The notes under the pieces were generated by a model that worked only from the letters and a program-made list of their open reading frames with translations, ran no database searches and was not told where the DNA came from. Position numbers and translations under genes: made by a program. A stretch of DNA of 64,000 nucleotides from a virus. The DNA lies in IMG/VR virus record IMGVR_UViG_3300043497_000005. One strand, given 5' to 3'. Numbering within the stretch: the stretch's first letter is position 1; each line of letters opens with the position of its first letter. This document shows positions 2,698 through 31,421 of this stretch, one piece after another.

Positions 2698-4526
2698 CAG
2701 GCAGCCGCCTTCTCTGGTGGTTTCGGTTTGACGCGGCCAACATAGGCCTTGAACCGCGCGTAGCTCTCCGGGTCCTTCAGGTTTAGCACGCCCGACCAGC
2801 CACTGTTCAGCAACAGCTTCTTGCCGAGCTTGCTATCGGCGATCTTCCACAGGCTCTTTGGATCGTTGCTGCGCACCAGATCGTAAAGCTCTGCGATCTC
2901 CGGCGATTGCTTCTCCTCCTCGGTCAACTCCATCTCCGGCTCTTCCTCGGGCTCGATCTCGATCTGGTCCTGACCGTAATTGCCAGCGATCTGCAGCTTT
3001 TCGGTGTTGTCCTTCTGATCCCAGTATTCTTCCTGATACTCCTCGACCTGCTCGGTGATGTAATCCGGCGGGTCCATGTCATCGACGGCCTTCTCGGCCT
3101 TTGAGTTGAACTCGGTCACCAACGCGTCGATGATCTCCTTGCGCATGTCCTCATCGAGCATCTTGTTGTAGATCGGCGGCTCGATCACCGGCAGGTCCAA
3201 CTGGTTCGGGTTCTTGTTCTTGCCGCTCTCGTCAAGCTGCTTGTCGTCCCACGTGAATTCCGGATCGTCCGCACCGTCCTCATAGCGCGATTGATATTCA
3301 TCGATCTGCAGCGCGGCCAGTATCTCCTCATCGTTGAACGGATAATCCGGTTGCTCGGCTTCCTTGCGCTCTTGGCGTAGCCGCTTCACTTCATCGAGCG
3401 CCCACGTGTTGTCGCCATCGTTGAACTTGACCTGCTCGTCGCGCTTGGCCTGTTCGAGCCCCTGCCCGCTCTCGCGCCAGTTCTCGATCTCGCTCTGCAC
3501 GAACTCATCGCGGCTATCGCGCATCCAGCGGCGCTTGGTCTCTTCCTGCTGATCGGTCGACAGGATTTCCCATTCATCTGCGGTGATGGTCTCGCCACTA
3601 CCAGAACGACGGCCACCGCCGCCTTCGATGCTGTCGAGCTTCTCTTCCAGTTCACCCGACAGCGATGACCACGCCGATGCTGTCGGCACGTAGCCATACT
3701 TGGCCCACGCGTAGCCGCCGACATCGATGTTCGCTGACACCTTCACAGTGGTGATGCCCATCGCCTCATAGGCCTCGACGTTGCCGCCGAGGATGCGCTT
3801 GCCGGTGTCGTCGCCGGTCGCGGCACGCTCCAGCTTGAAGTAGGCGCTGTAAGCCTCGTGCTTGTCGGGCTTGATCTCACGGGTGAACTCGCCGATGCGA
3901 TCACCATCCGCATCGCGGATGTCCCCAGTGACGCTGAACTCGCTGCCGCTCAACCTGATGCGCATATCGACGCGGTCCTGCAAGCCACCCGTGAAGGTTT
4001 TCTTGAACTCCTCCGGGTCCATGCCGATCTTCTCGTTCCACGCCTGCAGGAATTTCTCCTCGCTGCCATCCTCGGCGCGGTAGCGAATCTTGGCCTTCTC
4101 GAAATCGTCCTTGGTGGCAGGCTTTTTCGCCTTGCCGGTCTTCGGCTTGGCGGCTTCCTCGGCGGCTACCTTCTTTTCCTCTTCGGCCTGCGCGCTCATC
4201 GCGGCGGCCTCGGCCTGCCTCTGCGCTTCGCGCTTGCGTTCGGCGCGCTCTTTCAGCTTCGGCGATAGTGCAGCACCCGAGCGCTCGGTCTTCTCCTTGC
4301 GCGCCGCCATCGGTCCGACACCAGAACCGAACTGGCCTGCGGTCGAGCCCGCCGATACCCGCTCGTGCTTCTCCTCGTTCCACGCCCGCACCGCGTCGTG
4401 CACGTCCTCGCCGCTCCAGTGCGCACGCAGCCGAACACGCATCTCCTCGAAGTCCTCGTTCTCCCAGTGGGCCGGGGGATCGGGATCATCCTGCCAAGGT
4501 GCGAACTGCGGCGTGCCCCTCATCAC
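2697..4526 (-). CDS. Head-associated multidomain protein with GNAT-like segment
   Basis: WNEEKHER...GQF motif; segment YFKL...TGKRIL...VKVSANIDVGGYAWAKYGY resembles a GNAT fold; acidic C-half. Confidence 0.6.
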   Translation of the reverse strand: MMRGTPQFAPWQDDPDPPAHWENEDFEEMRVRLRAHWSGEDVHDAVRAWNEEKHERVSAGSTAGQFGSGVGPMAARKEKTERSGAALSPKLKERAERKREAQRQAEAAAMSAQAEEEKKVAAEEAAKPKTGKAKKPATKDDFEKAKIRYRAEDGSEEKFLQAWNEKIGMDPEEFKKTFTGGLQDRVDMRIRLSGSEFSVTGDIRDADGDRIGEFTREIKPDKHEAYSAYFKLERAATGDDTGKRILGGNVEAYEAMGITTVKVSANIDVGGYAWAKYGYVPTASAWSSLSGELEEKLDSIEGGGGRRSGSGETITADEWEILSTDQQEETKRRWMRDSRDEFVQSEIENWRESGQGLEQAKRDEQVKFNDGDNTWALDEVKRLRQERKEAEQPDYPFNDEEILAALQIDEYQSRYEDGADDPEFTWDDKQLDESGKNKNPNQLDLPVIEPPIYNKMLDEDMRKEIIDALVTEFNSKAEKAVDDMDPPDYITEQVEEYQEEYWDQKDNTEKLQIAGNYGQDQIEIEPEEEPEMELTEEEKQSPEIAELYDLVRSNDPKSLWKIADSKLGKKLLLNSGWSGVLNLKDPESYARFKAYVGRVKPKPPEKAAA

Positions 4527-7500
4527 GTGCCCTTCTTCTTCAGAGCGCTGAGCGATTTCGCATAATCAGTGTCGCGCTCCTTGCCGCGCACGCCCATGCC
4601 CTCCCACAGGATTTTCTCCGGCCACCACCATGTCGCCTGCGCACCCGCTGGCGTTAGCTCGATGCCGTGACGCTCGCGCATCTTGTCAATCGCCCGGTTG
4701 AACACGCTTGTGATCCACTTGCGCTGGTTGCCGTTCTTCGGTTGCTCCACCATCATGCCCTTGGCGGTCAGTGTAAGCCGCTCCGATGCCAGCACCAGTT
4801 CGCTCTTCTCGTATTTCTCCTTGGTGCCAGCCTTCTTCTGCGCCTTCTGATGCGCGATGAAGTCGCGCTCGTGCTGGGTGTAGATTTCCTCGGCCCGCTC
4901 GATCACGCCCTTCCTCGTGCGCGGCACCGGCAGGCCCGCATGATCCAGTGCACCCTCAACACGCTCGATCTGCTTGGTCATGTCCTCGACGTCGGTCGAG
5001 CCGATCCCGGTGTTGGTGATGCGGCCCCATGCGCGCATGAACCACAGGTCCATCGTGATCGGCGAGAAATTGCCGTTCAGGTTCTGATAGAAGCCCTGCC
5101 CGATCTTCGGACCCAGCATCGCCGAGCCGTACACGATATCGTCCTTCAGGGTCGCACCGGGCTCGACGCCGGTCTTCAATGCGAGATCGCGCGCGGTCAT
5201 CTTGGTGTCGAAGAACTCACGCAGCTTGGCAATGCCGCCTTCCTCGATGGCTTCGTTGACCTTGCGCAGGTTCTCGACAATGGACGCCTTCTTGACCTCG
5301 ATGTCGGTGGGAAAGCGGCCATGCTTCAAGAAATGCCGATAGGCCTGATCCGCCAGCGCCACGTTGCGATCAACCGTCTCGCCCTGCGATGTCACCGCCA
5401 GCGCCACCGTGTAGATGAACTTCTGGTCCTTGTCCTTCGAGATGCCGGGATAGATATCCTCGGCGATCTCCATCGCCTCTTTCACCGTGTCGTCGTACCA
5501 GTGCTCGCCCGATGCGCCGCCGATCAGGCCCTCGCGCAATTCCATTGCGATCACGTTGGCCAGATACTCATCGGTCTCCTCGGTGTGGTTCTCCTCGGTG
5601 ATCGAGCTTAGCCCGAGGTCGCGCTTCAGTATCTTGCCAGCGCGCTCGTTCAACACCTTGGCAGCCTCGGTCACCAGCACTGAGTTGGGCTTGATGTCCG
5701 GGTACTCCGACAGGATCGCCGTCGGCGTTAGCTCGAACCCTTCTTGCTCATAAGGTGGGAGCCAGTGATTGCGTACGTCTTGCCAGATGGCTTCAGCATC
5801 TTGAACCGGGGATCGCTCAATGACTTTCTGGTATATGCCTCGCGCGCGGTCTCGCTGTTCGCGGTCCGATCCTTTGCCGTCGTATCCGATGAACTCGGCT
5901 TTGCCGAACTGGTAATAGACCGGGTTGTCCTTGCCATAGGCCTGCGCTCCCTTGTCGACCTTGTCTAGCTCGTCGCCGTCGGTGTCGACCACATAGACCG
6001 TCGCACCGCCCTGCTTCGGCACAATGGTATGGTTTGAGATGCCAGCCTTCAACAGCTTCTTGTGGATGCTCTCCAGCGTGCCCTTGGCCTCGAACTGGAT
6101 CAAGGCATCGGTCCCCTTGTCCTGTTGCTCGAACACCAGCACCGCCTTCTGGTCTGCGATGTAGCCCTTCATCACGGTGGCCAGCACGATGCGGTCCCAG
6201 TTGGACTCCGCGCGCGACATCAGCGAGTTTTCTGCACCATCGGTCCATGCCCCGATGATGTTGACCTCCTTGGCATCCCGCACGCCGACCTTGTCGTTGA
6301 TGTCGAGCGAGCACGCGCGCAGCCTTGTTTGCTGCCGTGAATTCAACTCCCTGATCGCGCCCTTGAAATCCAGCCCGCTCTTGACGCTCGGCGATACAAA
6401 GCCGGTGGTCTTCTCCATGTTCTCCGGCATCGAAACGAACTGCCCGCCACCCTGTCCGCCGGGATCGCGCGCGTGCTTCGTCGGGTCCCACTGGATCAGG
6501 CGGTCAGCTAACTTGCTCGCCAAACGGTCCAACAAGGCCGCGTCGAAAGGGGCTCGGCTGTCTTTCGCTACCTCCCCTTCCATGCCGCGCGCCTTCGGTG
6601 GCGCTAGCTGCTTCATCGGCGCAGGTCCCGCAAGCTCAGCCTCAAGCGCTTCCTCGTCCAGCGCTTCCTGTGCAGCGATGGCTTCCTCGATGCCAGCCTC
6701 GATGCCGGGATAGGTGCCGTCCTCGATCAACTGGTTGACGCGGCCCTTCACCAGCGCCTCGAACGGCACCAGACCAGTGGAGGCATCAACCGCTGCAGTG
6801 TCGGCCTTCACCTTGGCGATGTCGGCCTTGTCCTTGGCGCTCATCTGCCACAACGGATTCCAGTTGTAGAAAATATCCTCATCGAACGAGCCAAGCGCCG
6901 ACATCTGGATCGCAATGTCGAGCTTCTCCAGCGTCGGCGTCAGCCGCAATTCCTGATCGCTCTTGATGCGGTCGTAGTAATTGGTCAGATCGCTCTCGCC
7001 TGTCGAGTTCAGACCTGCCGGTGCCTGTCCAAGGAAACGCGTCGCCGGGATGTCAGCCGCACCCGCAGCAATGTGCATGTACATCTGCATGATCTCGGGC
7101 ATGCCGGTGAAGTCGACGCCGATGCGCTGCCACTCCTCCTCGCCATCGAGCACCACCGCGTTGATCACGCTCTTGGCCACGTTGGCTTCCGAGAAGCGCT
7201 TGATCAGCCGGTTGGTGCCGTCGGTGGTCGAGAAGATTTCGGTCAGCCCCGGTATCTTGACCACGTCGAACTTGGCTTCACTGATCATCGCAGCGATGCT
7301 CTGTTGCACGGTGCCTGCGGCTGCAACCGCGTCGTGCACCATCTGCAGCACCGGATCGCCCCAACCGAAATTCGCCATCGGGTCCGGTGGATCGAGACCG
7401 ATCAGGCGGATCATGCGGCTCGGATGAATCTTCACGTTGCCGAGCTTTCCGCTCTCGTCGTTCAACGTGTAGAACTCGGGCTGGCCGTAGTACGGCGACG

Positions 7501-7939
7501 TCACGTCCTTGATCAGGTCCTGTATCGCCAGTTGATGCGGCGCGAGGATGTGCAGGAACTTCAACCCGTCCTTCTTGATGGTCGTCGGGTCCAACTCCTT
7601 GGCCATGTCGCCTTCCACACCCATCAGGATGCAGCAACCGCCATAGAGCCGCGCCTTCACCAAGGCTTCCTGCAATTTCAACTGCACGCGCAGGCGATCC
7701 TCGGTCTCCTCCAGTAGCTCGATCTGATCGGCCTCTGCCTGCCATGCGCGCCACTCACGCGTCGCATCCTGCGCAGGAATCGAGATCGCCTTGCGTGCGA
7801 TCCAGTCCGATTGAAACGACGACTCCAATTGATCACGCGACCACAGCGTCTTGGTGTAGTGGTGGCCAGTCATCTTGTCGCGACCTTGGACACCAAGGCC
7901 GCTCAAAAAATTCGTGAAAGTATCAAAAACATAACCCAC
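4523..7939 (-). CDS. Portal protein (DUF1073/HI1409-like) fused to a long C-terminal extension with a glycosylase-like domain
   Basis: N-terminal WIARKAISIPAQDATREW...AADIPATRFLGQAPAGLNSTGESDLTNYYD is DUF1073-type portal; start moved to GTG 7939 because an AAGGA RBS precedes it (ORF track starts at 8002). Confidence 0.8.
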   Translation of the reverse strand: MGYVFDTFTNFLSGLGVQGRDKMTGHHYTKTLWSRDQLESSFQSDWIARKAISIPAQDATREWRAWQAEADQIELLEETEDRLRVQLKLQEALVKARLYGGCCILMGVEGDMAKELDPTTIKKDGLKFLHILAPHQLAIQDLIKDVTSPYYGQPEFYTLNDESGKLGNVKIHPSRMIRLIGLDPPDPMANFGWGDPVLQMVHDAVAAAGTVQQSIAAMISEAKFDVVKIPGLTEIFSTTDGTNRLIKRFSEANVAKSVINAVVLDGEEEWQRIGVDFTGMPEIMQMYMHIAAGAADIPATRFLGQAPAGLNSTGESDLTNYYDRIKSDQELRLTPTLEKLDIAIQMSALGSFDEDIFYNWNPLWQMSAKDKADIAKVKADTAAVDASTGLVPFEALVKGRVNQLIEDGTYPGIEAGIEEAIAAQEALDEEALEAELAGPAPMKQLAPPKARGMEGEVAKDSRAPFDAALLDRLASKLADRLIQWDPTKHARDPGGQGGGQFVSMPENMEKTTGFVSPSVKSGLDFKGAIRELNSRQQTRLRACSLDINDKVGVRDAKEVNIIGAWTDGAENSLMSRAESNWDRIVLATVMKGYIADQKAVLVFEQQDKGTDALIQFEAKGTLESIHKKLLKAGISNHTIVPKQGGATVYVVDTDGDELDKVDKGAQAYGKDNPVYYQFGKAEFIGYDGKGSDREQRDRARGIYQKVIERSPVQDAEAIWQDVRNHWLPPYEQEGFELTPTAILSEYPDIKPNSVLVTEAAKVLNERAGKILKRDLGLSSITEENHTEETDEYLANVIAMELREGLIGGASGEHWYDDTVKEAMEIAEDIYPGISKDKDQKFIYTVALAVTSQGETVDRNVALADQAYRHFLKHGRFPTDIEVKKASIVENLRKVNEAIEEGGIAKLREFFDTKMTARDLALKTGVEPGATLKDDIVYGSAMLGPKIGQGFYQNLNGNFSPITMDLWFMRAWGRITNTGIGSTDVEDMTKQIERVEGALDHAGLPVPRTRKGVIERAEEIYTQHERDFIAHQKAQKKAGTKEKYEKSELVLASERLTLTAKGMMVEQPKNGNQRKWITSVFNRAIDKMRERHGIELTPAGAQATWWWPEKILWEGMGVRGKERDTDYAKSLSALKKKGT

Positions 7940-7987
7940 AGGCGCATCCTTTCTGATATCAACCTGTCGCCATTTCAGGATGGCATT

Positions 7988-8060
7988 GGCAAGGTATGGC
8001 ACGGCGCGTTCAGGCAGCGTTAGGCACGGACGGGCACGGTCTGGCTGGCTTGGCTGGCTA
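7988..8060 (+). ncRNA. Orphan GGY-NN pentamer unit (candidate stand-alone guide RNA)
   Basis: GGCAA GGTAT GGCAC GGCGC GTTCA GGCAG CGTTA GGCAC GGACG GGCAC GGTCT GGCTG...; same grammar as the 28-29.5 kb array; intergenic; followed by a hairpin and T-tract. Confidence 0.7.
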
Positions 8061-8062
8061 CG

Positions 8063-8095
8063 AAAGGGGCTCCCTCACGGGGGCCTCTTTCATTT
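8063..8095 (+). terminator. Intrinsic terminator-like hairpin (possibly bidirectional)
   Basis: AAAGGGGCTCCC-TCAC-GGGGGCCTCTTT followed by CATTT. Confidence 0.6.
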
Positions 8096-22364: not shown

Positions 22365-22587
22365 TCAACCTCCGCAATTTTCTCGTTTGCTCCTCAAGGC
22401 ACTCCGCTGCGAAGCGCTCCATCTTCATCAGCGCGTTGGCGTCGGCCTCGATCTCAGCCAGCTTGCGCTGCGCATCGAGCGAGCGCGCCCTGATCAGGTT
22501 GTACATGTCGCGCAGCCCCGCCACTAGCTCGCGCTGCGCCTTCAGTGGATCGAATTCGGTCATCATCGTCTCCATTGCTCGGTCCAT
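22354..22587 (-). CDS. Coiled-coil hypothetical protein
   Basis: C-terminal part of the track ORF; start uncertain. Confidence 0.5.
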   Translation of the reverse strand: MDRAMETMMTEFDPLKAQRELVAGLRDMYNLIRARSLDAQRKLAEIEADANALMKMERFAAECLEEQTRKLRRLNDG

Positions 22588-24086
22588 TGCGGGCTCTCCC
22601 TCACCTTGGATTTCGCCCACGCAATGGCGCGGCTCTTGATCCATGATGCGGTGCTCGGTCGCGGTGATAACATCTGCACGTGCTTCATGTCGTGCGACGG
22701 CCACGTTCCGATCCGCTCGCGATACTTGTTCGCCGCCCAGCCCTCCTTGTAGGCATGCTGGAACGCATAGCCCTTTAGCTCGGCAAAGAACATCGCCTTC
22801 TCGTTGTGCGTCATCTCGTCGGTGGGGCGCAGCGGCTTCTTCTTCGGTGGCTTCAACTCGCGAAGCTCGCCGGGCTCTGGCTCGATCTTGCTCACCACCT
22901 TGGCGACGGTCCCGCAGCCCGGGCAGCACGCCATCTTCGGCAGCTTCAGGTATCCGCAATTCGGGCATTCCTTCGGCAGCCGGATGTTGTCGGTGCGGTT
23001 GTCATTGCGCGGTGCCTTGCCGTCATGCAGCCCGACAAAGCTATCGTCAACGTCGGTCACCATGCCGAGCCGCAGGTGGTTGTCGCTGTGATCGAGGATC
23101 AGGCAGTCGTCTTTGCCGGGCGCGTTGCGCAGGCCACGCCCGACGATCTGGGTGAACAGCATATCGCTCTTGGTGGGCCTGCACATCGAGATGCAGCGAA
23201 CATCCCAGTCGATTCCGGTGGTCAGAGTCTCGACGTTCACCACCACCTTGAGCTTGCCATTGTGGAAGTCCCGCCGCAACGCCGCCCGCTCGGTGTCTTT
23301 GGTCTTGTGATCCTGATATCCGCAGGGGATTCCGGCGGCTTCGAACTGCAGCTTCAGCTTCATGGCGTGCGCGCGATCCACCGCGTAGCACAGCGTCGGT
23401 CGCCACTCCGACAGCTTCAGCCACGTCTCGACCGCATCGGCTACCAGCCTGCGCTCCTGCATCGCCAGCGATAGCTCATCGATCTGATAGTCGCCGCCCA
23501 CCGTGCGCACGTTGGACAGGTCCGGGTGCGATGGCGCGTAGACCCTGAACGGCGACAGGTTGCCCGCGTCGATCATCTGTTGGATCGATGCTGCCTTGTG
23601 ATAGTGATCGAACCACGCTCCCATGCCCTTGCGCCACGGCGTCGCACTCATTCCGATCAGCGGCACGTCGATCCATTCGGGCACCGGCACGTCTGGTGTG
23701 CCGAGCCACTTCTCGTAGAACGTAAACCATTGGTGACACTCATCGAGCAGCACCACGGCAACGTCTGGCACCGTGCGCCGCATCAGCGTTTGTACACTAG
23801 CGATCTGGATCGGCATGTCCCAATTCGACATGTGATGATCGGCTTGGATCACGCCGACATCGAGGATGCCACGACGCGCGAACATGCTCACGGTCTGGTC
23901 GATCAGCGAGATCGCGGGCACCGTGAACAGCACCTTCTTGTTTTTTTTCTGCGCGTTGGTCGTCAGCGCTGCAGCTAACTCGGTCTTGCCGTACCCTGTC
24001 GGAGCTTGCAGGCAGATGCGCCGCTTGCCGTCCCTCACCGCCTCACGCAGCGCCTGCAGTGCGGCTTCCTGATCATCACGTAGCAT
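22563..24086 (-). CDS. Superfamily II DEAD/DEAH-like helicase with Zn ribbon
   Basis: APTGYGKT, LDECH, SATP, QIVGRGLR, CPNC..CPGC. Confidence 0.92.
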   Translation of the reverse strand: MLRDDQEAALQALREAVRDGKRRICLQAPTGYGKTELAAALTTNAQKKNKKVLFTVPAISLIDQTVSMFARRGILDVGVIQADHHMSNWDMPIQIASVQTLMRRTVPDVAVVLLDECHQWFTFYEKWLGTPDVPVPEWIDVPLIGMSATPWRKGMGAWFDHYHKAASIQQMIDAGNLSPFRVYAPSHPDLSNVRTVGGDYQIDELSLAMQERRLVADAVETWLKLSEWRPTLCYAVDRAHAMKLKLQFEAAGIPCGYQDHKTKDTERAALRRDFHNGKLKVVVNVETLTTGIDWDVRCISMCRPTKSDMLFTQIVGRGLRNAPGKDDCLILDHSDNHLRLGMVTDVDDSFVGLHDGKAPRNDNRTDNIRLPKECPNCGYLKLPKMACCPGCGTVAKVVSKIEPEPGELRELKPPKKKPLRPTDEMTHNEKAMFFAELKGYAFQHAYKEGWAANKYRERIGTWPSHDMKHVQMLSPRPSTASWIKSRAIAWAKSKVRESPQWTEQWRR

Positions 24087-24536: not shown

Positions 24537-25216
24537 CGGTTGCTCCTTTTTGGTCATGTCTCTCCCACTTTCTTCCAGAGATACCCAGTGAGGGTGATGC
24601 TCCCCGCCTTGGCGGACCGGTTCGAAAAACCCGGCGGAATACTCGTTCGTCTTCGTCTGGGTCTCGGGGCGTAAAGTGGACAAACCGCACGGCCACGCAG
24701 CCGCTTTCCCACCCGAGGGGCAGTGCGACCTTCATCGGCTTCTGTGGGGAGGGACCACCGTGCAGCACCCACCGGCTCGATAAAGATCGGCCTCGGAACG
24801 CTTGCTGTGGATGGGGGTTGATGATAAGCGGGAAATTGCTTAGGTTTCCGCACTGGTCATCGACGCCTTGCTCGCAACAAGTATCGTCGGACTTTCGAGA
24901 GAGGCCACCGTTTGCTGCGGTGGCCTTTTCGATTCGTAGGCTGATCTCCTCGCTCGAAAGAGTCAAAACGTTTCGGTGCGCCAGCCGACGTTAGCTGCAT
25001 CACGAAAAATTACCGGGCACATTTGATCGATGCGGTTGACCACGATATCGCGGCATCGCTTCGTGCTTCACACCAAATATTGAATCTCTCCTGAAAATAT
25101 CTCCCACGGTGGGAGATGAAATGTTCCGAGCAGGTTGCTCTTGATCGCTCGCGCGTGAACCGGCTATGGGTGATTCGCGTTAGATGCAGCGCAACAACCA
25201 ATGGAGCAAAGACAGT

Positions 25217-25468
25217 ATGACTGACCAAAACAAGGACGCCAACCACAGCCTCGACCGCCGCCGGGAAGAGCGGGCACTCAACGATCTGGCACAGGACAGC
25301 GTCTCTCGCTTCACCGACCTGACCTCTGTCGGCATGGAAGTGATGCAGAAAAATATCGAATGGCAATCCGAGGTCGCGCGCTATTGGGCCGACAGCCTCA
25401 ACGTCGCCCATAGCTCGATGAACCAGATCATCCAGACGGTGCAGCAACAGCGCAAGCGTGTTGCCTAA
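25217..25468 (+). CDS. Hypothetical helical protein
   Basis: GGAGCAA RBS; lone rightward gene ending at a hairpin. Confidence 0.5.
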   Translation: MTDQNKDANHSLDRRREERALNDLAQDSVSRFTDLTSVGMEVMQKNIEWQSEVARYWADSLNVAHSSMNQIIQTVQQQRKRVA

Positions 25469-25482
25469 CCGGTTGTGATGAG

Positions 25483-25529
25483 AGGCCGGTCACCTGAAGC
25501 CGCCCCCGGCCCTTGGTGACCGGCCTTTT
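25483..25529. terminator. Hairpin between convergent genes
   Basis: AGGCCGGTCACC...GGTGACCGGCCT followed by TTT. Confidence 0.55.
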
Positions 25530-26065
25530 CATTTCTGCGCAGTGAACAGCGGCGTATGCCGCCACGCCAGTTGCGGGTTGAGCCACGCGCATTGAAAACT
25601 CCACAACGCGGCTGCATCACTCTCGTCGGTGGTGGTCGCGGGCCATCCCATTTGCTGGCAGCGCTCCAGCGTCAGCGGCTTGGCGATCTTCGCTTTCATA
25701 TTCTGGCCGATGAAGTGTGCTCGCACTTGGCTTACTGATGCTTGGCGAAGATCGTAGCGGTCGTAGCACCACTCCTCCAGATGCTCGGCGAGGCCGAACA
25801 GCAACCGCGTGGTGCTAATATTGGTCTTGCCGCCCATGAACGATGGCACCGCCGGGCTCTCGTACACGATCAGGTCAGGGCTCATGCGATGGTGCTTCAC
25901 CATCGCCTCAAGCCACTTCCTGAATTCACGATAGGTCTCGGCGTGCGATGCGCCGCCCTTGCTGAACCGCACGTGCCCACATAGCGGGATCGAGCCGGGC
26001 ACGCCAGCGGCCCAGCCTGTTGTCGTAGCTAAATCGAGCGCGAGCACGCGACCAGTAAAGGTCAC
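25529..26065 (-). CDS. RuvC-like Holliday junction resolvase
   Basis: LALDLATTTGWA, IVYESP, DESDAAA catalytic pattern. Confidence 0.8.
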   Translation of the reverse strand: MTFTGRVLALDLATTTGWAAGVPGSIPLCGHVRFSKGGASHAETYREFRKWLEAMVKHHRMSPDLIVYESPAVPSFMGGKTNISTTRLLFGLAEHLEEWCYDRYDLRQASVSQVRAHFIGQNMKAKIAKPLTLERCQQMGWPATTTDESDAAALWSFQCAWLNPQLAWRHTPLFTAQK

Positions 26066-26247
26066 CGCCCGCGCCTGCTGCGTTTTTTGACCGTAACAAC
26101 CACCCGCTTCGCCTTGCCGGTCTTCGGCTTGACGTTGACGGTACGCGTTGCCTTGTCGATCTTTGTCTTGTTTTTCTCCACGCGCTTTTCTCGCAGTGCG
26201 CGAAGCTCCATCTCTTTGGGTCCTACTTTATCGTGTGACATCATCAT
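26062..26247 (-). CDS. Small basic protein
   Basis: AAGGAGCAA RBS; K/R-rich. Confidence 0.55.
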   Translation of the reverse strand: MMMSHDKVGPKEMELRALREKRVEKNKTKIDKATRTVNVKPKTGKAKRVVVTVKKRSRRGR

Positions 26248-26461
26248 TGCTCCTTGGTGGATGCAGGTCAGGCCGCAGCCTCTCGCGGTCGATAGAGAAC
26301 AGCCTCTCGATCTTTATAACATGATGCGATGGAATACGATGCCAGCGCGTCAGTGTCGGCAGCGCGAGCTTGAGCGCCTTGGCCAAGCGATAGCGTGAGC
26401 CAGCCGCCGCCACCGCCAGCCGCAGACCCTCATCCCGAATTCGTTTTTTGCTCGTTGCCAT
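26228..26461 (-). CDS. Cro/YdaS-like HTH regulator
   Basis: AGSRYRLAKAL...RWHRIPSHHVIKIE...LRPDL; divergent from the RAMP-like gene. Confidence 0.75.
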   Translation of the reverse strand: MATSKKRIRDEGLRLAVAAAGSRYRLAKALKLALPTLTRWHRIPSHHVIKIERLFSIDRERLRPDLHPPRSNDDVTR

Positions 26462-26606
26462 GCGCGGGTAGCCTACAGGGAGACGACATCGGGATCACAC
26501 ACCCCCCGCAATTTATTTTTCACTGTCCTCTTGCATATAGTTGTTATTTATCTTACTGGGGGTTTGACCGTCAGCGTGGTGCTGGCCGGGCAAGGAGCAA
26601 ACTAAA

Positions 26607-27431
26607 ATGGCTGTGAAGAAAAAAGACGACACCGATCAGGCGATCATGATCAAGAAGATCGAGCCTGACATTGTACGTTGCGCGATCCTCGGTGCTTCGC
26701 CGATGATCATGCATCGGTTCGCGTTCAAGGCGTGGCAAGAATTGCTGTTGCCTGCCGCCAAGAAGAACGCGGCAGCGAAGGCGGAGAATCTAAAGCACGA
26801 TCCGCTCAACGAATTTCGTGAGTGCTGCTACCGCAACCGCTCGGAAGAAGAACCGACGGCGATCCACTATCCGGCTGGCGCGTTCTCGAAGGCACTGGCA
26901 GCGGCAGCGCTCGACCTGCCCGGAGCAACCAAGGCGCAAATCCTGCGGCTTGTCGGCGTCGTCAGCACACAGATCAATATCTATGGCACGCCCACGCTGG
27001 GCATGGATATGGTGCGATCCAGTGACATGGCCAGAACACCGGACGTGCGCACGCGCGCATATCTGCCGGAATGGTGCTGCACGGTGGACATCAGCTACAT
27101 CAAGTCGCTGATCGGGAAAGAGCAGATCATCAACCTGCTTGATGCTGCCGGTCTCATCGTCGGCATCGGCGACTACCGCCCGCAGAAGGGCGGACAGTAC
27201 GGTCGCTTCGAGGTAGTGAGCCCGGACAACAAGGACTTCGTGCGTATCATGAAGCAACAGGCGCGCATAGCGCAGGAAGCTGCGCTGGAGACCCCTACGT
27301 TCTTCAACGAGGATTCCGCTGAGCTATATCAGTGGTTCAATGAGGAGACCGAGCGTCGTGAGAAAACCGTGCCCTCGTCCAAGGGTAACGGCAAACCGAA
27401 GCCGCAGCCGACACAGGTGCCGGTGCAGTAA
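26607..27431 (+). CDS. RAMP/Cas7-like protein (putative guide-RNA-binding effector)
   Basis: N-terminal strand ILGASPMIMH and C-terminal Gly-rich loop GLIVGIGDYRPQKGGQYGRFEV resemble RAMP (Csm3/Cas7) hallmarks; lies upstream of the repeat array. Confidence 0.7.
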   Translation: MAVKKKDDTDQAIMIKKIEPDIVRCAILGASPMIMHRFAFKAWQELLLPAAKKNAAAKAENLKHDPLNEFRECCYRNRSEEEPTAIHYPAGAFSKALAAAALDLPGATKAQILRLVGVVSTQINIYGTPTLGMDMVRSSDMARTPDVRTRAYLPEWCCTVDISYIKSLIGKEQIINLLDAAGLIVGIGDYRPQKGGQYGRFEVVSPDNKDFVRIMKQQARIAQEAALETPTFFNEDSAELYQWFNEETERREKTVPSSKGNGKPKPQPTQVPVQ

Positions 27432-27439
27432 ACGAAAGC

Positions 27440-27474
27440 GGCGGCGATCAATTATGGTCGCCGCCATTTTTTTT
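27440..27474 (+). terminator. Intrinsic terminator between the RAMP-like gene and its partner
   Basis: GGCGGCGATCA-ATTA-TGGTCGCCGCC, then A and T8. Confidence 0.65.
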
Positions 27475-27489
27475 GAAAGGAGCGAGACA

Positions 27490-28044
27490 GTGAGCAGTAG
27501 ATCAGACAAACGCCAAAGAGAACTCGATGCCGCGATCCGCGCATGCGAGGATGAAACAGGCCATGCGATACCGAAGGTGGTGGTGGCGGCAGCGCAGGAC
27601 CCAACGCACCCAAGCTATGAGGTGCTCACCCTCGAATTTAATTGGAACGTTCAAGAGGCTGCACAAGCACACTGGGAAGATCGAGCGCGCGAGCTTATCC
27701 GCGAGGTGCGTGTGATGGTGGTTTACGGTGACGCCAAGATCGCGACGCCGGTTTACGTCAGCGATCCGCGCGTTCCCGAGTCGTCGTTTATCCGCACAGT
27801 AAGAATCGCGCGAAGCGGACCAACCAAAAGGGCGGTGCTGCAGGCGGAGTGCGACCGGATCGCTTCGGCGATCAACCGCGCGATAGGTCTGGCTGTTGTG
27901 TTCGATCTAGAACAGCGTTTCGAAAACGCGCTTGCCGAGATCATGATGGCGGCCAACGAGCTAGGCAGCCGCGACGACGATGGCGACGACGATGACGGTG
28001 GCAGCGCATCACCGCGCGGGCCGGAGCCATCACCGGCACCGTGA
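27490..28044 (+). CDS. Partner protein of the RAMP-like gene
   Basis: GTG start with AAGGAG RBS; PKVVVAAAQDPTHP...FNWN...AAQAHW..RARELI; ends 8 nt before the array. Confidence 0.7.
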   Translation: MSSRSDKRQRELDAAIRACEDETGHAIPKVVVAAAQDPTHPSYEVLTLEFNWNVQEAAQAHWEDRARELIREVRVMVVYGDAKIATPVYVSDPRVPESSFIRTVRIARSGPTKRAVLQAECDRIASAINRAIGLAVVFDLEQRFENALAEIMMAANELGSRDDDGDDDDGGSASPRGPEPSPAP

Positions 28045-28052
28045 GCTTGCTT

Positions 28053-29570
28053 GGCATGGCAGGCACGGTGAGGTGAGGTACGTTGAGGCGCGGCTGTGCG
28101 CGGTCTGGTTGGGCTCGGTTAGGTCAGGCAGGCAAGGCCCGGCGAGTTGTTGTGAGTTATGATATGGCAAGTCGCGGCGTGGCAGGCGCGGTTAGGCCGG
28201 GCGAGGTTAGGTGCGTCGCGGCAGGGTATGGCGGGCCGAGGCCGGGCTGGGCAGGACTGGTGAGGTCGGGCCGGGATTGGTCAGGCAGGGCGCGGCGAGG
28301 CGCGGCGTGTTGTGTCCGATTAGGTTTGGGCAAGGCAGGCATGGTGTGGCGCGTTTGGCGATGGCGAGTTGAGGCTAGTCCGGTTGAGACGAGGCATGTC
28401 GCGGCGAGGCAGGCGAGGTAGTCTGGCCACGTCTAGCTCGGTCACGGCGAGGCTTGGCAGGCGCGGTGTGTCAGGTCAGGTCATGTCATGGCCGGGTAGG
28501 TCAAGGCGCGGCCCGGTAAGTCATGGCGTGGCAGGCAAGGCATGGTGTGATCGTGTGGGGTGAGATCAGGTGCGACGAGGCAAGGCAGGCGCGGTTAGGC
28601 GGCGAGGGGCACGGCTGGGCACGGCGAGGCAAGGTATGGCAGGCATGGCTCGGTTTCGGCGGCGCTCGGTGTTGCACGGTCAGGCCGGGCGTGGCGTGGC
28701 ATGGCAGGCACGTTATGGCTGGGCAAGGTAGGTCATTGGTGTGGCAGGCGACGTCTGGCGCGGGCGGCTAGTTGTGGTCGGGTCAGGCAAGGCATGGCAG
28801 GCGAGGTACGGCAAGGTGTGTTCGTGCGAGGCAAGGTCGGGCAGGCTGGGCAAGGCGCGTCGGCGCTTGGTGAGGCAGTGTGCGGCGTGGCTGGGCAAGG
28901 TTAGGCAGGCGAGGTGCGGCGAGGCCGGATATGGCACGGTCCGGCTTGGTGGGGTTTGGCGCGGCAGGCGCGGCAAGGCGAGCCCGGTCAGGCCGGGGTC
29001 GGCTCTGGCGAGGCACGGCATGGCGAGGCAGGCTGGGCGGGCTTCGGTTTGGCAAGGCATGGCTGGTTGCGGTTAGCTCTGTTGCGGCGTGACGTGGCAG
29101 GCTGGGCTTGGCTTGACGCGGTCGGGTTCGTTGCGGTGGGGCAGGTTGTGGTCAGGCGTGGCAGGCGAGGCGTGTTTTGGTCCGGCAGGATAAGGCTAGG
29201 TCTGGCAAGGCAGGCTGGGCTTGGTATGGCGCAGCGAGGCGGGGCACGATGGGGCAAGGCACGGCAGGCGCGGACTGGCTCAGTATGGCTAGGCGCGGCT
29301 GGGTAAGGCGCAGCGAGGCAGGCAAGTTAGGGTCTGTCGCGGCGAGGCAAGGACGGCCCGGGCGTGGCGAGGATTGGCACGGCAGGCAAGGTTGGGCGTG
29401 GCGAGGTCTGGCATGTAGCGGCTAGGTGAGCCACGGCAGGCTAGGCACGCACAGGTGACGTGAGGCATGGCGAGACGAGGATGGGTTGGGTGACGCGAGG
29501 CTAGGTCAGGCAGGCTGGGCTCGGTAGGGTCGTGCATGTTCGGGTTGGTCACGTCGCGGAGTGGCAGGCA
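28053..29570 (+). ncRNA. GGY-NN pentamer array, 25 units delimited by GGCA(GG); candidate guide-RNA array
   Basis: Strict 5-nt periodicity; 26 GGCAGG delimiters; 21 of 25 units have length 5n+4; terminator follows. Confidence 0.85.
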
Positions 29571-29575
29571 AAAGG

Positions 29576-29604
29576 AAACCGGGAGAATTACTCTCCCGGT
29601 TTTT
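29576..29604 (+). terminator. Terminator closing the array
   Basis: AAACCGGGAGA-ATTAC-TCTCCCGGTTTTT; overlaps the end of the convergent ORF. Confidence 0.75.
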
Positions 29605-29773
29605 CCTTGCTGGTTAGTTCGTGGTATCGAATGCACCACGTGTCGATATCGCTCTGCGTGTAGCCGCGCGAGTTCATCTCTTTCCAGAATTCCTCTCGCG
29701 TCATCCGTTTGTCGCCGTACTGACCGAGCAGGTACGCCAGCGATTCGTATTTGGTGAGCGGCTTGGTCTTCAT
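29588..29773 (-). CDS. Hypothetical protein (gapped near-match to array unit 24)
   Basis: MKTKPLTKYESLAY...YTQSDIDTWCIRYH...; ATGA overlap. Confidence 0.65.
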   Translation of the reverse strand: MKTKPLTKYESLAYLLGQYGDKRMTREEFWKEMNSRGYTQSDIDTWCIRYHELTSKEKPGE

Positions 29774-30420
29774 GGCTGCGGCCTGTGCTCCCGGCAGAAC
29801 CACCGACCCGGCTTGCCCTTCAACAGACTGACACCGTAACCCCAGCTAGCGTCGCGACAGCACACCTCGCAGAAATTGGAATCGGGCCAACCGGGGCCGA
29901 TCAGGTAGCGCTTGGTTTTCACGCCGCCACCGATGACGTCATTGACCGGCACCACGCGGCACTCAGTGCGGTTGCGCTCGTTGGTGCGCGTGATCGGCCA
30001 CATCTCCTCGCCGGTTTCCCAGAACCACTTCTTCAGCGCCTGCATGTCCATCACGTAGACGTTGAGGCCAACCTCGCTCTTCGGTGTCGAGAACGCATAG
30101 ATCAGGATGTCGGCGACCGAGGTGTACATCCAGCCTTGTCGCTCGTAGCCCGGGACCGTACAGGTCCACGTCTCCAGCGCGAAGGCGGTGTATCCCGTCG
30201 TCCCGTCGGTGGGCCAGTGCACGATCTTCTCCTCGACAGTCTTCTGCCCGCCCGGCGTTTCTACCAGCGTGTCGACGTAGCGCTGGGTTGGGTCGTTGTT
30301 GTCGAGAAAGCGATACCTGTCTGGAAAATATCGGTCATAGAAAAATGGCTTCAGGATCATGTCGCGCTGCCTGACCTGCCAAGCATTCTTGATGTCGAAA
30401 GTGTTGTCGATGTCGCTCAT
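29770..30420 (-). CDS. Putative PD-(D/E)xK nuclease-like protein with C-terminal Cys motif
   Basis: YVDTLV...VEEK, ADILIY; CEVC...WFCREH. Confidence 0.55.
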   Translation of the reverse strand: MSDIDNTFDIKNAWQVRQRDMILKPFFYDRYFPDRYRFLDNNDPTQRYVDTLVETPGGQKTVEEKIVHWPTDGTTGYTAFALETWTCTVPGYERQGWMYTSVADILIYAFSTPKSEVGLNVYVMDMQALKKWFWETGEEMWPITRTNERNRTECRVVPVNDVIGGGVKTKRYLIGPGWPDSNFCEVCCRDASWGYGVSLLKGKPGRWFCREHRPQP

Positions 30421-31421
30421 CCTGCAGCCGCCTCTGTCCCGGCTTCAACGAACAGGTTGGTGAAGTCAGAACGCTCCTCACGCTGGTTGGCCTCGCCATA
30501 TGGCGGATAAGAACCGGCGCGGATGATCTCGTAGGATTTTTCCGGCTTCTCCGAGTGCTTACCACGCGGTGCCTCGAAGTGCGTCGGGATGCTGGCTGCC
30601 GCCGGACGTGTGGTGGTTTCACCGCGCGTGGCGAATATCATGTGCTCGGTGCTGTTGCGATAGTAGCTGCCGAGCCCGAACGGCGGCGGCTTGATCCACG
30701 TGATGACGGTGCGGTGCTGAAAGCCCCAATGCTCGACCAGCTTGCACGCCTCGCTCATGAAGTTGTTGGTCGTCCAGCAATACATCTGACAGCCTTCTTC
30801 TTCATCGGCCCACGCCGCAACGTCAAGCTCACGCAGTTGTTCGATGGTCTGCATCGCATAGCCCGGCTTTGCGCGTGCAGCGATGGACAACCAATCGTAA
30901 TCCCAAGCCGGATCGATGACGATAGTGCGGAATTTTCCGACGCGGGGCACGAGGTTCAGGATACGATATTCATCGGCCTGTACCCTCGTGGTGCGCAGAA
31001 TACTCGACACCTCGTTGCGCTGAAGCGTCGGGCAGATCGTGCCATCCTTCACCAACCGCTTGAAAGTAACTTCATCGAGCCGGGCGATCTTGTCGATGGT
31101 GTTGTAGTCGGGTGGAAGCATCTTGGCCAAATGGGAGTCAATGACTCCCATTTGGGAATCGCACCACGTCGCAATCCGCATGAACATGCTGGCAACACGA
31201 CGGTGGAATTTCAGATCACTATCGAGCACATTGATCCACTGCCCGTGCTCCAGACCAGCCTTAGCCCTATGCAGATCGCGGCCAAGCTCGATGAACCCAG
31301 TGACGGCGGTTTGCCTAATAACATCCCATTGATCGTTGAGCCGCTTCGCCCACTGTCGTCTCGTCAGTTGTAATTCGCCCGGCTTGATGACAGTCAATTC
31401 CCGGCTTGGCTTCTTAGGCAT
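30417..31421 (-). CDS. MT-A70-family adenine methyltransferase with N-terminal DNA-binding-like domain
   Basis: IVIDPAW, YCWTTN, WGF..TVITWIK, G.Y.RNSTEH, HSEKPE. Confidence 0.85.
   Translation of the reverse strand: MPKKPSRELTVIKPGELQLTRRQWAKRLNDQWDVIRQTAVTGFIELGRDLHRAKAGLEHGQWINVLDSDLKFHRRVASMFMRIATWCDSQMGVIDSHLAKMLPPDYNTIDKIARLDEVTFKRLVKDGTICPTLQRNEVSSILRTTRVQADEYRILNLVPRVGKFRTIVIDPAWDYDWLSIAARAKPGYAMQTIEQLRELDVAAWADEEEGCQMYCWTTNNFMSEACKLVEHWGFQHRTVITWIKPPPFGLGSYYRNSTEHMIFATRGETTTRPAAASIPTHFEAPRGKHSEKPEKSYEIIRAGSYPPYGEANQREERSDFTNLFVEAGTEAAAG
31127..31155. promoter_or_regulatory. 29-bp perfect palindrome, copy 2 (inside the methylase gene)
   Basis: CCAAATGGGAGTCA-A-TGACTCCCATTTGG. Confidence 0.65.

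Follow-up and report, generated by a model that had tools for sequence, protein, structure and literature searches.

A predicted VIPR guide in a soil phage fits the resolvase genes of related phages better than its own

The IMG/VR virus record IMGVR_UViG_3300043497_000005, a stretch of 64,000 nucleotides analysed here in full and called the window, reads as a soil phage or prophage with a VIPR system made up of the protein Vipr, a small accessory protein, a staggered array of guide RNAs (vrRNAs) and one solo guide (Table 1). VIPR, a phage system for RNA-guided gene silencing, was first described in 2026 (bioRxiv 10.64898/2026.04.26.720920 and 10.64898/2026.10.15.759431). The window locus is assigned to it because of the Vipr profile match, the Cas7-type fold, the linkage to the array, the GGY-NN grammar with GGCA steps and the fit to the published description. 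Unit 1 of the array appears to be a real guide against a family of RuvC-like Holliday-junction resolvase genes, and copies of this gene in other phages match it better than the copy carried in the window. We consider it very probable that the VIPR locus aims unit 1 at a rival resolvase allele and that the phage's own gene is spared by ordinary divergence.

Published VIPR systems, of which there are seven types, combine Vipr, a minimal RAMP protein, with vrRNAs of 9-16 YNNGG repeats, whose NN bases pair with double-stranded DNA while one target base per repeat, usually a codon wobble position, is skipped; binding represses transcription of competing phages and satellites (10.64898/2026.04.26.720920). 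The same preprint calls natural targets at a match of at least 80% of NN bases, and reports no self hit that reaches this level. Perturbed NN pairing abolishes silencing, according to the VIPR preprints, and the second of them describes solo vrRNAs, guides that sit on the active site of a recombinase, where escape would damage the enzyme, and self scores below non-self scores (10.64898/2026.10.15.759431). By this mechanism, each guide in the window would be a run of GGY-NN pentamers (beads) with the GGY bases held by Vipr subunits; the NN bases would read the DNA two at a time, and binding would repress transcription in competing mobile elements. The ribonucleoprotein, its binding to DNA and the repression are taken from these papers, and the family membership, the foreign matches with their significance and the absence of an escape signature come from the present analysis.

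Foreign and self matches of unit 1

Unit 1 comprises 13 pentamers, 11 of which start with GGY, and its NN series is AC GA GA AC GA GC TG GC CT TG TC TA CA. In a collection of 59 IMG/VR loci encoding relatives of the window resolvase, the close homologues (protein identity of about 36% or more) have their best unit-1 match on the homologous 13 codons. RuvC-like genes in 7 IMG/VR contigs match 11/13 dinucleotides and 23/26 bases (88%). These contigs represent at least 4 nucleotide sequence types with differing wobble bases, and the peptide under the guide is TDE[S/A]DACALW[D/S]YQ. When 1000 shuffled unit-1 guides were run against 1.5 Mb of the relatives' DNA, the maximum was 9/13. The match of unit 1 is convincing because foreign homologues reach 11/13 and none of the shuffled guides does.

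The match within the window is poorer. The reverse complement of 25592-25630 lies in frame with the resolvase open reading frame (ORF) at 25529-26065, and unit 1 agrees with it in 8/13 dinucleotides at codon positions 1-2, 19/26 NN bases (73%) and 10/13 decoded amino acids; guide and gene are 2.4 kb apart. The original prediction, drawn from the sequence of this stretch, had read the same NN series from unit 1 and reported the same DNA and amino acid agreement, which is correct as stated. A score of 8/13 is reached nowhere else in the window on either strand at any offset, and in 2.0-2.6% of trials an order-shuffled unit-1 guide also scores 8 at some position of the window. For the 23 units tested, chance would supply about 0.5 such matches; taken by itself the self match is therefore weak, confirming an earlier caution that it was not significant by itself. 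These searches used in-phase queries in place of a test of all five pentamer phases, which was swamped by GG-GG-GG queries on Gly-rich DNA.

RuvC-like resolvases are RNase H-like in fold and have four acidic catalytic residues, of which the third and fourth lie in a C-terminal D-x-x-D-A helix. In an alignment of 22 homologues of the window resolvase, D10 is invariant and E68 is at least 90% conserved, and acidic columns are conserved at the D-E-S-D-A motif (D147-A151 of the 178-amino-acid ORF; E147/D149/A150 in alignment numbering). The family profile aligned this D-x-x-D-A stretch with the C-terminal D-x-x-D-A of the solved RuvC structure 6lw3, weakly (E 0.28), and Pfam gave no match for the ORF. 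Unit 1 would be aimed at the catalytic D-x-x-D-A helix of the resolvase in related phages carrying the allele given above. The claim that unit 1 is a wobble-skipping guide spelling a RuvC-like motif, with the phage's own gene as a poorer match, holds; the decoding is not new, the code being the published VIPR one-nucleotide-skip rule, and both the wobble-skipping code and the targeting of catalytic sites were already known from the 2026 preprints.

Divergence of the window resolvase and rival explanations

The window resolvase is a homologue of the target gene, so the partial 8/13 match would be inherited, and divergence at an ordinary rate would have kept it under the natural-target level. 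Compared with the best real targets, the self site has Ala for Cys, Phe for Tyr and TTG for CTG, with only one of the four base changes silent; guide positions 4 and 11 are mismatched in the targets also. Divergence at codon positions 1-2 between the self copy and 13 relatives is 19-42% in the 13-codon footprint and 22-33% elsewhere in the gene; between the self copy and the target phage the values are 23% in the footprint and 28% outside. The own copy is very probably spared by ordinary allele divergence and carries no escape signature.

The original prediction offered another account, in which selection favoured silent changes at codon positions 1-2 of the resolvase gene, from CTN to TTG at Leu and from TCN to AGT at Ser, that hide it from the phage's own guide. 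Silent changes at these positions are open only to the codons of Leu, Ser and Arg, and two of the five mismatched dinucleotides are indeed synonymous with the decoded guide. As a principle, such Leu/Ser/Arg-only escape from a wobble-skipping guide is correct, and term searches of the main text of the two VIPR preprints did not find it. At this locus there is no evidence for it. Regions beside the relatives' resolvase genes were screened with a Vipr profile hidden Markov model (HMM) and a bead scan, up to 8 kb on each side as the contig allowed, and vipr plus an array were found only in contigs L186 and L194. The targeted Leu codon is TTG in 5/12 relatives whose upstream flank is long enough to show that the syntenic site lacks vipr and array, and in 10/26 close loci overall. 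Of 9 close relatives with Ser at position 11, 7 use AGY and 2 use TCG; the other alleles are Asp, Asn or His, beside which AGY is probably ancestral and not a swap from TCN. Relatives without the guide carry the same codons, the outcome that the original prediction had named as its refutation, and the proposed escape through silent family swaps fails on this comparison.

The accompanying claim that TTG and AGT are unusual for a GC-rich genome was not borne out. Across 49 ORFs of the window, TTR accounts for 17% of Leu codons (TTG for 14.5%) and AGY for 35% of Ser codons, and 7/11 Ser codons of the resolvase gene are AGY. Both codon families are common in this phage; the rarity of AGT (5%) comes solely from its wobble T, a base that the guide does not read. 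One pattern could be taken to favour silent escape: among 19 resolvase sequences the targeted Leu column is TTR in 9, compared with a median of 2/19 for 12 conserved Leu columns. Alignment columns 105 and 153 both have TTR in 9/19, one of them being the Leu under unit 1, and the other ten Leu columns have 0-4. The TTR-rich targeted column is not evidence either way, because a column outside the footprint ties with it and the sequences are not independent. With TTG and AGY widespread in relatives, real targets mismatched at position 11 as well and no excess of position 1-2 divergence in the footprint, selection for silent escape is very unlikely.

Two further guides behave like unit 1, combining a partial self match with a better foreign match, and earlier observations on them stand as matches. 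Unit 24 has a self match of 10/14 dinucleotides (71% of NN bases), and 1/3000 shuffles reach 10/14; in the phage represented by L185, L186 and L194 it matches 12/14 dinucleotides and 89% of bases, which 0/1000 shuffles reach. The solo guide matches the window at 9/12 (79% of NN bases) at 7841-7876, the start of a large minus-strand gene, and relative L248 at the same site at 10/12 (87.5% of bases). The foreign sites of all three guides follow the codon frame of the target gene, and the wobble position is the one skipped. A fourth unit, at 28967-29026, matches L237 at 10/12 and 88% of bases (0/60 shuffles reach this), so that four foreign matches lie at or above 80% of NN bases and the self matches of unit 1, unit 24 and the solo guide all lie below it. 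The unit at 29213-29262 matches L225 at 8/10 (p about 0.05). The large late gene at the solo-guide site has an open frame at 4523-8002 on the minus strand with a likely ATG at 7873, and from there the frame runs on upstream into the complement of the solo guide, because this C-rich complement has no stop codons; gene callers may over-extend the gene.

Such self matches could themselves be functional, with unit 1 weakly binding and tuning the phage's own resolvase and with unit 24 and the solo guide perhaps doing likewise at neighbouring genes. For three guides the best match within the window falls in a gene of the phage itself, in two cases no more than about 112 nucleotides from the guide, and the self match of the solo guide covers the start codon of the late gene and comes close to the 80% line. 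All three guides, however, fit a foreign allele better; silencing is reported to be lost when NN pairing is perturbed, and the preprints report no self hit that reaches 80%. The partial self matches of the three guides are explained without function by the homology of the phage's own genes to the target genes. Autoregulation is very unlikely. That the resemblance between unit 1 and the RuvC-like gene is a product of multiple testing (p about 0.02-0.03 per unit over 23 units for the self match) is scarcely credible and already refuted by the foreign matches, which reach 11/13 at homologous codons, independently of wobble bases, where 0/1000 shuffles reach 10.

Several results weigh against the reading of unit 1 as a guide aimed at a rival resolvase allele. 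A target matching 12/13 or 13/13 was absent in the IMG/VR search, and a relaxed 11-dinucleotide pattern had no match in one genome per prokaryote species. Guide positions 4 (AC) and 11 (TC) fit none of the close homologues. The absence of a fuller match means either that sampling has missed the exact allele for which the guide was made or that the guide is drifting. Within the window, 21/23 units have no significant match, and most of these have none in the relatives' DNA searched either. Transcription and processing of the array are predicted from the DNA, and the RNA evidence consists of two 151-nucleotide contigs from soil metatranscriptome run X24 that are identical to vipr (window 26765-27067), with none on the array; these give a weak hint of vipr expression, and DNA carry-over is possible. 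We infer that silencing needs more than 8/13 and that 11/13 suffices, but this margin between self and non-self is an assumption, the mismatch tolerance of Vipr not being stated in the sections of the preprints used here. The locus provides a natural pair of sites, a target at 11/13 and a self site at 8/13, on which the tolerance of Vipr for NN mismatches could be gauged.

The VIPR locus and a co-occurring rival phage

Table 1 Features of the window and their coordinates
Feature	Coordinates	Strand	Description
Unit 1	28062-28126	+	13-bead guide against RuvC-like resolvase genes; 8/13 self, 11/13 foreign homologues
Self near-target of unit 1	25592-25630	-	Codons 146-158, peptide TDESDAAALWSFQ; 8/13 dinucleotides
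RuvC-like Holliday-junction resolvase gene	25529-26065	-	178-amino-acid ORF; phrog_159, E 1.2e-13
vipr	26607-27431	+	274 amino acids, lone Cas7-like RAMP protein (Vipr); profile and fold match, array linkage
Hairpin after vipr	27437-27476	+	GC-rich, followed by a T-run, directly 3' of the vipr stop codon; terminator-like by sequence reading, terminator role inferred
vap-like accessory gene	27490-28044	+	184 amino acids, between vipr and array; matches phrog_15946
Staggered vrRNA array	28053-29570	+	About 310 pentamer beads in about 25 units of 8-16 beads, with 4-nucleotide GGCA steps between; dynamic-programming parse
Unit 24	29439-29508	+	14-bead guide; self 10/14 at 29621-29662 (-)
Hairpin closing the array	about 29573-29607	+	Followed by a T-run, terminator-like, between convergent units; sequence reading
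Solo vrRNA	7988-8047	+	12 in-phase beads, then hairpin 8063-8095; sole bead run outside the array
Site matched by rival guide	23155-23178	+	In the helicase gene (22563-24086, -); first 8 beads of the L186 array, 8/8

A profile built from the window Vipr and 27 array-linked homologues matched the Protein Data Bank entry 36pp_D, 'SUSP1 Vipr protein', at E 1.2e-12, and the single window sequence matched it at E 0.0035. Its AlphaFold model (pLDDT 85.5) had Cas7-type subunits of Cmr4, Csm3 and gRAMP as best Foldseek matches (probability 1.00). A G-rich C-terminal loop is conserved among the homologues, and the protein also matches phrog_4652. Among 115 independent IMG/VR loci with GGYNN arrays, 78 are flanked by a Vipr homologue in the same orientation; a search of one genome per prokaryote species with the Vipr protein found no relative.

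The dynamic-programming parse of the array yields 282 five-nucleotide beads and 27 four-nucleotide steps. GGC opens 134 beads and GGT 59 (193/282 together), and all 16 NN dinucleotides are in use. Adjacent guides abut without tails and shift by one nucleotide at the 27 GGCA steps, as compared with the legend of fig. S18 in 10.64898/2026.04.26.720920, the preprint that describes 'staggered arrays' with guides overlapping by one base. The 1.5-kb region has a period-5 signal and is strongly G-skewed (GC skew about +0.38), contains no ORF of more than 112 amino acids and, scanned with Rfam over 25000-31000, matches no family. The same bead grammar occurs in at least 120 IMG/VR contigs, where arrays contain the GGCA step 675 times and unit size peaks at 8-10 beads. 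General literature searching on pentanucleotide repeats in phages returned nothing relevant. Other identities for the array, namely an RNA for a TRAP-like ring protein, a G-quadruplex or R-loop element, Chi-like decoys, a ribosome or CsrA sponge, and iterons, were dropped because the array-linked protein matches Vipr.

The array grammar is also found in Cheoctovirus mycobacteriophages. In the Che8-like Mycobacterium phage Donkeykong (NC_051648; L001:2989-4558, gp48-gp50), the stretch annotated as 'hypothetical protein' gp48 is a GGYNN vrRNA array; gp49 is homologous to Vipr (31% identity, E 8e-17), and after it comes a gene similar to that of the window's accessory protein. The observation extends to phage Saal (L002), another Cheoctovirus. 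Donkeykong gp46 and gp47 were rejected as homologues of the two window genes in favour of gp49 and the gene that follows it. Homologues of the accessory gene occupy the same interval between vipr and array in L120, L013, L111, L104 and L036 and in the mycobacteriophage loci. Since vipr is followed at once by a hairpin and T-run, expression of the accessory gene and array may depend on read-through or on a promoter of their own.

At the syntenic site (L186:3130-5355), the phage of L186 and L194, which unit 1 and unit 24 match best, encodes a Vipr of its own (HMM E 7.6e-51) together with a gap the size of the accessory gene and a staggered array. Single-sequence tblastn missed this divergent Vipr and the profile HMM detected it. 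Beads 1-8 of the L186 array agree with the window helicase gene in all eight dinucleotides, with the skipped bases on wobble positions of its minus-strand codons; in L186 itself the first beads have no match of 6/9 or better. Both phages, tracked by window 25500-29700 and L186:3300-8600, are present in soil metagenome runs X1-X9 and X11 from several studies, mostly at 0.8-1.0 of sampled words, and a contig from X5 equals window 26778-29352, a segment that starts inside vipr and stops shortly before the array ends, with zero differences. These data suggest reciprocal targeting between co-occurring phages with VIPR at the same site, which would give a concrete case of the sword-and-shield picture. 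In a wider scenario, which we regard as unlikely, the two related soil phages target each other's replication genes: the window phage would aim at the rival's resolvase and a small gene beside it, the rival at the helicase of the window phage, with self and non-self only two or three dinucleotides apart. VIPR pressure would then itself drive allele divergence at codon positions 1-2 in catalytic motifs, with silent switches between CTG and TTG at the targeted Leu among the changes.

Relation to known VIPR and CRISPR systems

The locus has the features expected of VIPR: a single-RRM RAMP protein, units of 8-16 GGY/NN pentamers, a vap-like neighbour, foreign targets at or above 80% of NN bases and self matches below that level. 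It is closest in form to the staggered-array VIPR of 10.64898/2026.04.26.720920 (fig. S18 legend), with which it shares a lone Vipr RAMP protein, a small accessory gene, abutting GGY-NN guides, carriage by a phage, a wobble skip in genes of other phages and the lack of a self hit at 80% or more. Its array is unusually long (about 25 guides in 1.5 kb) and is found in a soil phage. The type II VIPR of Escherichia phage SUSP1 and a Pseudomonas fulva prophage shares the protein family (E 1.2e-12), the one-nucleotide skip, a coding target at a catalytic site where escape would be paid for in function, solo vrRNAs and self scores below non-self scores. The vrRNAs of SUSP1 are described as separate transcripts of about 100 nucleotides with a conserved pseudoknot tail, aimed mainly at a satellite recombinase, whereas the window guides are tail-less and aimed at relatives' homologues of the phage's own replication and structural genes.

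With the Cas7 backbone proteins of class 1 CRISPR systems (Csm3, Cmr4 and Cas7), the window Vipr shares the RRM/RAMP fold with a glycine-rich loop and a periodic protein grip that interrupts base pairing. The vipr-vap-array locus differs from these systems in that no CRISPR repeats, adaptation genes or large effector are seen in or beside it, the family scan having covered the genes that flank it. The guide period is 5 nucleotides with 2 pairing bases, compared with 6 nucleotides and 5 pairing bases in CRISPR, and the target is read with gaps.

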